Below are positions 55,197-58,930 of a DNA stretch of 64,000 nucleotides, piece by piece. The notes under the pieces were generated by a model. That model did no database searches. It was not told where the DNA came from and saw only the letters and a list, made by a program, of their open reading frames with translations. The position numbers and the translations under genes are program-made. This DNA is from an uncultured Muribaculaceae bacterium (lineage in GTDB: Bacteria; Bacillota_I; Bacilli_A; RF39; UBA660): NCBI GenBank assembly GCA_964370475.1, contig CAYJJI010000003.1:14389-78388 (forward strand), given 5' to 3'. How positions within the stretch are numbered: position 1 is the stretch's first letter; each line of letters opens with the position of its first letter.

Positions 55197-56720
55197 CTAA
55201 ATAGACTTTTTAATTATTTGTACATATTCAATACATTCTTTCATTACACCTTTACCACATTCTTTATTTAAGAATGAAATAAATGGATCTAATTCATCAC
55301 GTATGAATGCTATATTTAATTGTTCAAATTTTCTTAATATTTTTCTTGCTAGGAAGTAGTCAATTGCTTCCATTTCATCTCCACCACATGCAACATATAC
55401 TGGTGCAAATTGGTTAAGTTGCTTCATAATTCTGTTACCGAATGCTACACGGAAGTGTTTGATAACGTAATCATCTATTTTTGTTAATTTATTTAGTGCT
55501 TCTTCTGATATTTTTACATTAGTCATTGCTTCTTTAAATAGTGCTTCTAAGTAAGATGAGTTAATACTCATTGCTTCTTGTTCACGACACTCAAATGGTG
55601 ATATCTTTTTATTAATATCGATAGGCATTGCTCTATCGTATACCTTATCTGTTACCATATATGTTGAATCATCATTATTGATTGTTCCTATATACCATAA
55701 GTTTCCAGGTAATTGAATTTTTCCGTTTTTGATGTACTTTGGATCATTTTGCCATCCACTTGTTACTAATTCAACTATCCATTCATCTCTTGATGGAATT
55801 TCTAGAATTGATAACATTTCTGCAAAGTAGTACTCTACTCTGGCGATGTTCATTTCATCTAATATTATTGTATGAACGTTATCATCGTAACTAGCTGCGT
55901 ACACTTCACCAAGGGCATCTGTTTCTGTAAATTTCTTTGTAAATTCGTTGAAATATCCAAAGAATTCTGTTTTATCTTTCCATGAAGGTTGTACTGATGC
56001 TACAACTGAGTCATTAGCAACGAATTTCCCCCATGCGTATGCAAGGGAAGTTTTCCCTGTTCCTGAGATACCTTGTAATATTATTAGTTTACTTATTGCT
56101 AATCCAGCTACGAATACTCTTAATAAACTTGGTTCGTAATATAATTTCAATTTTGAAGCTGAGAAACTTCTTAAGTTATCAATTAATTCTTCTAGTGTGA
56201 AATTATTATTATAATTAGGTACTGTTTTACCTTCAAATGATTGGTCTATCATTTCTAATTTAGGGAATCTGTGAGCATTTTCTATTACTTCTTCATCTTC
56301 CTCAGTAGCTTTACTAGTTCCATCAGGATTTTCTCCATCTTCTTCTGGATTCAATCCTAATTGTGAAACTTTCATAGCCATTAATTCGCTATTTTCTTTC
56401 ATTAATCTTCTAACTTGATTGTTCAATTTATCTAATTCTTCTAGTAATGATTCATTACTTAATTTTGTTGTTTTGTTTCTTAAGAATCTTCTTACATATA
56501 AGAATATTAAGAAAGCTATTAGTCCTACAAATAGCACAAGGAAACCCACTGCTACAGCAGTGAATAACCATTCTGGTCCATTGAAGTCTTTTGAATAGCC
56601 TTCAATTAGTTTACTATATTTACTAAAGTTAAATATTTCTACTATTCCTTTTCCTATTGTTGTAATTCCTGTTACAAATATATCTAGAAATTCAAATATA
56701 AATCTTGTAAAGGTTTCCAT
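55197..56720 (-). CDS. Membrane-anchored McrB-like AAA+ (AAA_5) GTPase
   Basis: 507 aa. TM WLFTAVAVGFLVLFVGLIAFLIFLYV followed by RRFLRNK, then a coiled coil. Walker A GISGTGKTS. Walker B and fingerprint IILDEMNIARVEYYFAEMLSILE (compare McrB DEINRA…FGEL). NLWYIGTINNDDST (compare McrB IIGTMNTAD). Confidence 0.65.
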   Translation of the reverse strand: METFTRFIFEFLDIFVTGITTIGKGIVEIFNFSKYSKLIEGYSKDFNGPEWLFTAVAVGFLVLFVGLIAFLIFLYVRRFLRNKTTKLSNESLLEELDKLNNQVRRLMKENSELMAMKVSQLGLNPEEDGENPDGTSKATEEDEEVIENAHRFPKLEMIDQSFEGKTVPNYNNNFTLEELIDNLRSFSASKLKLYYEPSLLRVFVAGLAISKLIILQGISGTGKTSLAYAWGKFVANDSVVASVQPSWKDKTEFFGYFNEFTKKFTETDALGEVYAASYDDNVHTIILDEMNIARVEYYFAEMLSILEIPSRDEWIVELVTSGWQNDPKYIKNGKIQLPGNLWYIGTINNDDSTYMVTDKVYDRAMPIDINKKISPFECREQEAMSINSSYLEALFKEAMTNVKISEEALNKLTKIDDYVIKHFRVAFGNRIMKQLNQFAPVYVACGGDEMEAIDYFLARKILRKFEQLNIAFIRDELDPFISFLNKECGKGVMKECIEYVQIIKKSI

Positions 56721-58930
56721 TATTCACCATCTCCCACTGTTTTTAATTTTTTTTCAAAATCATCTTTAATAATGCGGTCTTTGAAATTATCAAGTACTAC
56801 ATTATCTATTGGAACAGTTTTAACCTTTTTATCAATAAAGATATATTCAGCTAGCGCCATCGATGTTTTGTTTTTACTTATAAATTTAGTTTTGTTATCG
56901 ATATAACATGATATTCTATATCCTTTTTTTCTTAGTTCTTTAATTATTTTTGATACTTTCATAAATTCATCATATGAAATTAAGTATATTACATTTTTCT
57001 TTGCATATTCATCATCATTGTTATTAAAGTATCTTTCTAATTTTTTTTCTTTATCTGATAATGAGTTTGGAATTGTTACAATGTATTCATTCATGAAATC
57101 ACCTTGTAACATATCTTTACCAAGTCTAGCTTGTAGTAATGTCATTAGTACGTTAAGTTTATCTTCTGCTACAATACCTTCTTGATATGCTTTATTAATT
57201 ATTTCATTACTATATACTTGGCTGAAGTTAATATTATGTTTAATATTTACTATGTATTTTCCTTTTTTTGATTTTATTTCACTGTATACTAGTTCGAACA
57301 CTTCTGTTTTTAATCTATTTAGGAAAAATTTGTTAATTCTATTATGTTTCTTTTGAATGTTTATAATATTTTTACATAGTTCGTCAATATTATCGAATTC
57401 TATTTCGTAATCTGATGCGAATTTAATCAATTCTTTTGCATATAAGTGTTTTTTACCTTTTAAATCTTTAGAAGTAGTTTCTAAGTATTCAAGTTTTGAT
57501 ATCATCATCATTAACATTGCATACTTTTCTAGTTTGTAGTCATAGTATTTATCTGTTCCTGAGTGGTTTTTACTTAATTTTTGACTATCTTCTTCTAGGG
57601 CATTACCTATACGAATTATTACTTTTTTAGCTCTTTCTTTTAGAGCTTTTTTAAAGCCGTTCTTTTCGTTAATAATATCTGAATTATTATCTAAGACATA
57701 GTTGAATTTTGATGTTGATGTTCTTCTATCTAGTTCAGCTACACTTTTACTAAATATATTATAATATTTTGATTCTATATATGATTTTATTAAGGCTTTT
57801 TTGATAGATGGTTCATTTTGTTTCAATTTATAATCTTTATGTATTTCATCTATTATTTGATTTATTTCTTCTTCTTTAATTGCCATTAACTTAGATATAA
57901 CACCTTTACATCTTTTGTTTTCTGTTTTATTAAATATTTCTTCTAGTGCTATTTTTTCTTCTACGATTTCTTCTGTAGTTTTTTCTTCTACTTCGTCTTC
58001 TTCTTCAGTTATTTCTTCTATTGTTTCATGACTAAGTGGCAAGTCTTCAACTGAGCTACTTTTTTCTAGTTCTTCCATATCTTCAAATTCTTCATCATCT
58101 AGTTCTACTGTTTGAATATCGCTATCATCTTCTTCTACCGATATAATTCTGAAGAATGTTGTTTTTGATAAATCCTCATCTATTTGTTCCTGAGTTCTAC
58201 TTTCTACAGTTTTATTATCTTCTAACAAATCTTCTTCATCTAAGTAGACAGTGTTTGAGTAGTCTTCTACTTGTTCTTCTACTTTAGTTATATTTTCTTT
58301 CTTTTCTTCTAATTTATCTTCTTCCATGAAATCATCACCTAGTGAATCAAGTATTTTATCTTCTTTATTACTAGGAATTAATTTATTAATTAAGGATTTA
58401 ATTTTACTAAACATTTCTTTTTCTTCTCCTTTTAAAATTACTGTAAAGATGTAAAATACTATTATCATCAATATGATGACTACAGGATTTAATATTGTAC
58501 TCTTGATAAGGCCAAAAAATGGTATTGTACTTACTACTTCACCAATTACTTGATCTGATGTTATTTTTTCGTTATCTTCTTTAGGATTTGCATCTCCTTT
58601 TGTTGTTATTTCATCATTTAATACTGTTTTTATTCTATGTGTTATTACTTCTTGATCTGAATTTATAAAAGATATTACTTGATCATATTCGTAATTTGTT
58701 TTGTTTTTCGTTATTATCCAATCTCCAGGGGAAATTGTTGGTTCCATACTACCTGTTTGTACTTCTAAAAGTGTATATCCAAAGAAACTTGAATATTGAT
58801 TACCTAGTATTTTTGTTTGGAAAAAGTTATATATTGCAACAAGAAGTATTACTCCAAGAAATAATATAGCTATATTCAGGAAAAAATTAACTATACTTTT
58901 TTTGACTTCTTTTTTGACTCTATATTTCAT
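56720..58930 (-). CDS. SipW-type signal peptidase fused to about 550-aa acidic/cytoplasmic C-terminal domain
   Basis: 736 aa. Complete SipW module with TM, EVQTGSMEPTISPGDWI, VITHRIK and second TM. Then an E/D-rich linker and a roughly 400-aa globular domain of unknown family. Start overlaps the McrB-like stop (ATGA). Confidence 0.65.
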   Translation of the reverse strand: MKYRVKKEVKKSIVNFFLNIAILFLGVILLVAIYNFFQTKILGNQYSSFFGYTLLEVQTGSMEPTISPGDWIITKNKTNYEYDQVISFINSDQEVITHRIKTVLNDEITTKGDANPKEDNEKITSDQVIGEVVSTIPFFGLIKSTILNPVVIILMIIVFYIFTVILKGEEKEMFSKIKSLINKLIPSNKEDKILDSLGDDFMEEDKLEEKKENITKVEEQVEDYSNTVYLDEEDLLEDNKTVESRTQEQIDEDLSKTTFFRIISVEEDDSDIQTVELDDEEFEDMEELEKSSSVEDLPLSHETIEEITEEEDEVEEKTTEEIVEEKIALEEIFNKTENKRCKGVISKLMAIKEEEINQIIDEIHKDYKLKQNEPSIKKALIKSYIESKYYNIFSKSVAELDRRTSTSKFNYVLDNNSDIINEKNGFKKALKERAKKVIIRIGNALEEDSQKLSKNHSGTDKYYDYKLEKYAMLMMMISKLEYLETTSKDLKGKKHLYAKELIKFASDYEIEFDNIDELCKNIINIQKKHNRINKFFLNRLKTEVFELVYSEIKSKKGKYIVNIKHNINFSQVYSNEIINKAYQEGIVAEDKLNVLMTLLQARLGKDMLQGDFMNEYIVTIPNSLSDKEKKLERYFNNNDDEYAKKNVIYLISYDEFMKVSKIIKELRKKGYRISCYIDNKTKFISKNKTSMALAEYIFIDKKVKTVPIDNVVLDNFKDRIIKDDFEKKLKTVGDGE

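Follow-up and report, generated by a model that had tools for sequence, protein, structure and literature searches.

Why would a signal peptidase predicted to face the outside of the cell carry a large cytoplasmic extension, and why would that extension be encoded directly against a McrB-type GTPase gene? The question is raised by a locus in a 64,000-nucleotide (nt) stretch of DNA (hereafter, the window), positions 14,389 to 78,388 of contig CAYJJI010000003.1 in assembly GCA_964370475.1, which is titled uncultured Muribaculaceae bacterium and has the GTDB lineage Bacteria; Bacillota_I; Bacilli_A; RF39; UBA660. The gene in question (56720-58930, complement strand) encodes a protein of 736 amino acids (aa) in which a SipW-type signal peptidase is followed by an acidic linker, a helical domain and a domain with a predicted EAL-like fold. 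We found that the two-domain cytoplasmic module forms a conserved unit with a McrB-like GTPase and a McrC-like protein, and that the clade of the window has joined this module to the peptidase.

Architecture of the fusion protein

The fusion is encoded in one open reading frame (ORF) without an internal stop, preceded by a Shine-Dalgarno-like site (AGGAAGGG), in a window of low G+C content (about 26%). Its TAA stop codon shares one base with the ATG of the next gene, which encodes the McrB-like protein (TAATG); the overlap had been pointed out in the initial annotation and turned out to be part of a wider pattern described below.

Residues 1-170 (58421-58930, complement strand) comprise a transmembrane (TM) helix, a SipW/Sec11-type catalytic domain and a second TM helix. 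Residues 17-164 matched TIGR02228, the archaeal/ER-type signal peptidase I model, with 64.3 bits (cut-off 51.85), and Pfam returned the generic S24/S26 fold and nothing finer. In a family-profile alignment, the Ser box QTGSMEP (Ser61, codon 58748-58750), the His box VITHRIK (His98, codon 58637-58639) and the segment KGDANPKED (Asp113 and Asp119) fall on the catalytic Ser, His and Asp of human SEC11A/C, and these residues are unchanged in 52-53 of the 53 relatives that have the N-terminus. The initial annotation had described a complete SipW module with Ser and His boxes, and these data agree with it. The score against the Bacillus SipW equivalog NF046067 was 70.2 bits, under the cut-off of 190 bits, and judged by these profiles the domain is SipW-type, not an ortholog of Bacillus SipW. 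Hydropathy places the TM segments at residues 9-43 and 135-170, the second of which accounts for the proposed re-entry into the membrane after the peptidase. Because the N-terminus is rich in Lys and Arg, the positive-inside rule predicts that both ends of the peptidase module are cytoplasmic and that its catalytic domain lies outside. From its sequence, we take the peptidase to be catalytically competent and facing outward.

The linker (residues 171-334; 57929-58420, complement strand) spans about 165 aa and is as acidic as initially described, with 58 Asp/Glu against 14 Lys/Arg in residues 181-330. Its composition suggests that it is probably disordered, and its length varies among relatives. 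One short linear motif (residues 251-267, DEDLSKTTFFRIISVEE; 58130-58180, complement strand) is kept within this otherwise variable region: the pattern [DEN][LIMV][DESNT]KT...[RKSQ].[IVL].[VIL], or in short form [DE][LM][DE]KTxxFRxxSV, is present in 49 of 57 relatives, and it is a candidate docking peptide. A peptide resembling it also occurs in P0304, a TM-tethered form of the module that has no peptidase.

The remainder of the protein (residues 335-736) had been described as a domain of about 400 aa with no nameable motif. That description holds for sequence databases, in that neither Pfam nor NCBIfam has a match to these residues, but a fold can now be assigned to them. An AlphaFold2 (AF2) model of residues 335-736, built from a 58-sequence alignment, had a mean pLDDT (predicted local distance difference test) score of 82.6 and a predicted template modeling (pTM) score of 0.81. 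In its first part (model residues 10-206) seven helices pack into a bundle; its second part (model residues 211-395) is a seven-stranded alpha/beta domain, which we predict to be a degenerate EAL-like barrel. The helical domain, of about 200 aa (residues 335-540; 57311-57928, complement strand; pLDDT mostly 85-95), is without a structural or sequence relative, and no match in the PDB spans it. The C-terminal domain, of about 195 aa (residues 541-736; 56723-57310, complement strand), has in the model the (beta/alpha) barrel fold of EAL domains, and its top structural matches include LapD and FimX, which are non-catalytic receptors of cyclic di-GMP (c-di-GMP), along with YdiV and STM1697. The modeled barrel stops after strand 7 and so is one or two strands short at the C-terminus.

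Sequence methods gave no sign of this resemblance. PF00563 had no match in any of the 58 family members at E values up to 10 in a Pfam scan, a profile search of the PDB with the same E limit brought up no EAL chain, and hhalign against an alignment of Escherichia coli PdeH, PdeL, PdeK and YdiV returned a probability of 0.3%. The invariant residues of the family are H-N after strand 2, Y-S, G..AE.K, Y, K..K and K.G, and the signature motifs of EAL domains (EAL, NxS, ExxE, DDFG, KxD, EGVE, QG) are all missing from the family consensus and its invariant columns. Because the signature motifs are missing, the barrel is short and sequence methods are blank, we call the domain EAL-like in fold only; as modeled, it should be regarded as neither an EAL domain nor a phosphodiesterase. 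We also matched 'KHN' to 'EAL' and 'IFIDKK' to 'lKiD' by eye, and we set these pairings aside as a reading of the model without statistical support.

The module and the McrB-like and McrC-like proteins

The architecture of the fusion recurs widely. A search with residues 335-736 returned 98 proteins, nearly all of 630-700 aa with an S24/S26 N-terminus, and when one genome was scanned per species, 134 relatives of the C-terminal module proved to be encoded; viral contigs yielded no relative. In 78 of the loci that we fetched, the same architecture is encoded in one ORF of 633-834 aa, the linker accounting for the differences in length. The metagenome-assembled genomes of the 134 relatives are labeled Bacilli, Mollicutes, Tenericutes, Candidatus Coprovivens and, in many cases, uncultured Muribaculaceae. 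Titles of this last kind (L005-L010 and others) mismatch the gene content and G+C of the loci that carry them, and the labels are probably wrong.

The gene that overlaps the stop codon of the fusion (55197-56720, complement strand) encodes a McrB-like GTPase of 507 aa, consisting in order of an N-terminal TM helix, a conserved helix (residues ~85-120), an acidic spacer and an AAA+ core. The core has the motifs GISGTGKTS (Walker A), ILDEMN (Walker B) and GTINNDDST. The GTPase aligned to E. coli McrB by hhalign with a probability of 96.7% and with the Walker A, Walker B and N-x-x-D positions intact; the invariant N-N-D-D aligns without gaps on the N-T-A-D of the E. coli protein but would equally suit a reading as NxD plus a further D. 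The protein matched the PADLOC defense-candidate model PDC-M26A with 126 bits, and we found no paper that describes this candidate. The neighbor had been presented as simply a cytoplasmic protein, which its TM helix contradicts. The helix-like segment that follows the anchor is conserved (LNxEELLxEIxxLNxQVxKLMKEKDEIMAMKVSQLGLNP). A crude heptad scan found no coiled coil in the N-terminus, and the matches of this region to DivIC/FtsL were faint (E above 0.1, in one of eight members).

The next gene (54040-55182, complement strand) encodes a McrC-like partner of 380 aa with a DUF2357 N-terminal domain (PF09823, 25.3 bits, cut-off 23.3). Pfam detected no nuclease domain in this protein, and it had no significant alignment to E. 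coli McrC.

We compared gene order across 80 genome loci and found it to be essentially constant: a SipW-like gene (sip0), the fusion, the McrB-like gene, the DUF2357 gene, a stand-alone SipW gene, t406 and t202 (opposite strand), with the remaining secreted-protein genes and the gene for a 554-aa protein lying to one side of this core or the other; the McrB-like and DUF2357 genes are neighbors in all loci. In the 70 loci measured, the spacing between the fusion and the McrB-like gene always fell between -14 and +17 nt. The genes outside the cluster are ordinary housekeeping genes (AddAB, UvrB, EF-G-like) that vary between genomes. Proteins of the cluster are 30-40% identical across 134 species genomes of one lineage, and the cluster spans the whole of this lineage of uncultured, small-genome gut Bacilli.

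Relatives of the module outside this arrangement were retrieved with a profile of the EAL-like domain, which found 380 relatives among 1.84 billion representative proteins. The 87 strong matches were mostly full-length fusions, plus fragments. Others were soluble proteins of about 315-340 aa with a shorter helical part and the EAL-like domain, a 598-aa protein in which a plain TM helix and acidic linker tether the module without a peptidase, and a 618-aa protein with a long acidic N-terminus. Wherever the context could be retrieved (L088, L089, L090, L092 and probably a fifth locus, L093, that is truncated by the end of its contig), a TM-anchored McrB-like gene comes immediately downstream of the module, in many cases with an overlap, and the DUF2357 gene is next where the contig extends that far (L088, L090 and L092). 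Separate SipW genes are present in L088-L090, one of which, in L090, encodes a 254-aa protein with an acidic C-terminal tail of its own, and homologs of the secreted proteins are present in L090. In that same locus a gene for a 2641-aa signal-anchored protein (11414-14942) follows the secreted-protein genes.

Because the adjacency is kept in fused, soluble and re-tethered forms, the conserved unit is the module with the McrB-like and McrC-like proteins, and the pattern of fusion and fission speaks for a coupling in function between peptidase, module and GTPase. The regulated or energized substrate processing suggested in the initial annotation is conjectural. A link between the fusion and the GTPase had been proposed from a single overlap; the adjacency proved much stronger than could be known from that locus, but an association of McrBC with signal peptidases was already in print (PMC11090510).

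SipW paralogs, secreted proteins and other genes of the cluster

Two further SipW-like genes lie within the cluster. The stand-alone signal peptidase (198 aa; 53447-54043, complement strand) matched TIGR02228 with 77.3 bits and keeps the Ser and His. The protein encoded by sip0 (191 aa; 59043-59618, complement strand) is a pseudo-peptidase by a three-way alignment and the consensus of 58 loci: its match to TIGR02228 is weak, both TM helices are present, and the catalytic Ser and His are gone. It is conserved directly upstream of the fusion in 58 related loci and may serve as a structural subunit.

Six genes for signal-anchored secreted proteins occupy 46635-53429, one on the forward strand (51543-52151) and five on the complement strand (52209-53429, 50575-51297, 49157-50551, 47887-49131 and 46635-47762). 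Related loci carry homologs of these genes within the same cluster. The proteins are abundant, rich in Gly, Ala and Thr and strongly conserved, and in four of the six the TM segment (signal anchor) ends in the motif [ST][FY]AWF. One of them, of 414 aa, comes from a family that numbers more than 1794 proteins (identity about 45%) and in which four cysteines and T-x-A-W-F-x-G are invariant. It models as a beta-sandwich that weakly resembles the subunits of donor-strand filaments; its best structural matches were a Sulfolobus thread, the TasA fiber, the CFA/I and CS17 pilins and cannulae. None of the secreted proteins matched the TasA/Peptidase_M73 models or those for SipW-cognate signals. The label 'TasA-like fiber subunit' is therefore reasonable but unproven for the 414-aa protein.

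The last gene of the cluster (44652-46316, complement strand) encodes a conserved cytoplasmic protein of 554 aa that has no domain match and accompanies the cluster in most related loci. Judging from a crude heptad scan, it may have a coiled coil near residues 32-68. Neither this protein nor the fusion nor the DUF2357 protein had a PADLOC match. Elsewhere in the window, G+C reaches its minimum (0.194) in the segment 32001-34000, where the GC skew is strongly positive (0.48); the segment falls inside a 900-aa ORF (32228-34930, forward strand) without a Pfam match.

Proposed role of the cluster and comparison with known systems

A group of McrB GTPases with a TM and coiled-coil N-terminus and an association with signal peptidases has been named CoCoPALM (Bell et al. 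2024; eLife, PMC11090510). In our judgment the locus is best explained as a CoCoPALM-type cluster for a surface fiber, in which a SipW peptidase is tethered to the McrB-like/McrC-like pair through the module, an explanation to which we give about an even chance. The second TM helix of the competent peptidase would run into the acidic tether and then into the two-domain cytoplasmic module, which would act as a third conserved partner, alongside the McrB-like GTPase anchored in the membrane and the McrC-like (DUF2357) subunit. The 12-gene cluster, with three SipW paralogs (one dead), six signal-anchored proteins that may be beta-sandwiches and the 554-aa protein, would probably build or remodel a surface fiber from SipW-processed subunits. 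By holding one peptidase at the GTPase complex, the fusion would place subunit cleavage or release at the outer face where the GTPase acts. We infer that the module physically contacts the GTPase complex, that the secreted proteins are substrates of the peptidases and polymerize into a filament, and that GTP hydrolysis gates or powers the extraction, release or assembly of subunits.

A further-reaching version of this explanation is possible, if doubtful. The cluster would be a previously uncharacterized machine of small-genome gut Bacilli, driven by GTP, that assembles or secretes donor-strand (TasA-like) fibers and in which a domesticated McrBC motor is joined to a signal peptidase by an EAL-fold adaptor, and it would define a new class of pilus biogenesis dependent on a nucleoside triphosphatase (NTPase). 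McrBC is known as a DNA-restriction motor. The McrB/McrC pair of the window is without a detectable nuclease, has gained a membrane anchor and shares its conserved operon with three signal peptidases and abundant secreted proteins. If the GTPase does drive or gate fiber assembly, a defense motor would have been recruited to the biogenesis of the cell surface, and the cluster would represent a new route to donor-strand fibers.

Several observations weigh against the explanation that we favor. Bacillus TasA-type fibers assemble without an NTPase, so the need for a GTPase is not obvious. Relatives of McrBC are typically defense systems, and the GTPase itself matches a defense-candidate model. The assignment of the EAL-like fold depends on a single AF2 model, and profile methods show no EAL signal.

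The resemblance to LapD and FimX raises the question of whether the C-terminal domain is a second-messenger receptor that binds c-di-GMP or another nucleotide and switches the peptidase or fiber assembly, as LapD controls the protease LapG and FimX controls type IV pili. Besides the presence of these two receptors among the best structural matches, such a role would suit the family's best-conserved patch (HNIxFSxVYSxxIxxKxYxEGIVAEDK), which follows strand 2 and, when placed by eye, lies at the EAL-signature region of true EAL domains, and it would suit the richness of the invariant polar residues in His and Lys. However, the domain has no EAL signal in its sequence and no recognizable signature motif, and the last strand or strands of the barrel are absent. 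No GG[DE]EF motif occurs in 1.48 Mb made up of the window and related loci, which are local regions, not whole genomes, and Mollicutes-like lineages are generally poor in c-di-GMP signaling; both points count against a receptor. The variable acidic linker, of 150-300 residues between the second TM helix and the module, likewise opposes a rigid, inside-out transmission of the LapD kind. We consider a receptor unlikely. Because the linker is long, variable and acidic, the data argue for tethering and recruitment over LapD-style rigid transmembrane allostery.

The ancestry of the GTPase pair might instead point to a role in defense or conflict, in which a membrane-associated immune system derived from McrBC would sense an invader through the GTPase and use the peptidases and secreted proteins as effectors or decoys. 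The match to PDC-M26A is in keeping with this, and the sister CoCoNuT branches are predicted to be defense systems (PMC11090510). Yet the same gene order is found in 134 species genomes of one lineage, which suggests vertical, housekeeping-like inheritance and not a patchy defense island. Ordinary genes surround the cluster, the McrC-like protein gave no sign of a nuclease, and the secreted proteins are conserved and rich in Gly, Ala and Thr, like structural subunits. These features leave a defense role quite improbable.

It is also conceivable that the module acts alone, either as an anti-activator like YdiV or as a signaling tail like the C-terminus of Bacillus subtilis SipW, and that its adjacency to the GTPase gene reflects co-expression only. 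The structural matches YdiV and STM1697 work purely through protein binding. A second function is said to reside in the C-terminus of B. subtilis SipW, which would favor such a role. This SipW is reported to be bifunctional (Terra et al. 2012, as cited in PMC4292775). The adjacency of the module and the McrB-like gene, however, persists through fusion, fission and re-tethering in all the contexts examined, which would be difficult to account for if no function were shared, and we see only a slim prospect for independent moonlighting.

Finally, we reject a sequencing or assembly frameshift that fused the gene for a peptidase to an unrelated one downstream of it as having practically no chance of being correct, because the single ORF with its parts in the same order recurs in 78 independent loci from many assemblies and is uninterrupted in the window; the two-ORF genes of L005 (CAYJCL010000001.1, the closest relative of the window; 373 and 265 aa) and L017 (107 and 592 aa) are probably local assembly errors or decay.

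The tethered peptidase-GTPase arrangement that we favor has parallels in several known systems. Type IV pili and archaella offer an analogy in the logic of their parts, which are subunits held by a signal anchor, a membrane peptidase dedicated to them and a ring-shaped NTPase on the cytoplasmic side, but all of the parts are unrelated: the peptidase of the window belongs to S26B and not to the aspartyl A24 family, and a McrB-type GTPase takes the place of PilB/FlaI. The side of cleavage would differ as well, with the cut made at the outer face of the membrane here and at the inner face there.

LapD/LapG and FimX resemble the window system in linking a non-catalytic cytoplasmic domain of EAL fold to an extracytoplasmic protease and to surface fibers. 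The domain of the window differs from theirs in having a truncated barrel and no detectable sequence homology or signature residues. In addition, it is covalently joined to its protease through a linker that is probably disordered, whereas LapD/LapG relies on a HAMP/S-helix relay.

The tapA-sipW-tasA locus of B. subtilis and other loci for SipW/TasA-like fibers (archaeal bundling pili, cannulae) likewise place a dedicated ER/archaeal-type signal peptidase beside secreted beta-sandwich proteins. The modeled member of the window cluster resembles, weakly, the subunits of TasA and other donor-strand filaments. Unlike tapA-sipW-tasA, the cluster has no match to Peptidase_M73 or to the SipW equivalog, and it alone has three SipW paralogs, of which one is inactive, together with a GTPase pair and a peptidase that bears a large cytoplasmic domain.

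The locus fits CoCoPALM, a class that has been named and is as yet uncharacterized. It shares with this class a McrB/DUF2357 pair, a TM-anchored N-terminus followed by a helix on the McrB-like GTPase, and an association with signal peptidases in the form of three SipW-like genes conserved across loci. The class is further marked by an NxD variant of the McrB NxxD signature and by an FtsB-like N-terminus of the GTPase; the N-N-D-D of the window suits either reading of the signature, and homology to FtsB was not confirmed. CoCoPALM occupies three sentences in the paper that introduced it, which defers a description to a later paper (PMC11090510); we found no such later paper, and the text of the CoCoNuT paper's supplement has no CoCoPALM detail. 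In a literature search that paired SipW with McrB, mcrBC was mentioned only inside the genotype of an E. coli strain. The paper that named CoCoPALM mentions no SipW fusion, no third component with helical and EAL-like domains and no secreted beta-sandwich proteins. The fusion to SipW, the predicted EAL-like fold of the third core component and the pattern of fusion and fission are therefore new relative to the accessible literature. To the sole published mention of the class, the locus adds this third component, its link by fusion and fission to both peptidase and GTPase, and a conserved motif in the tether.

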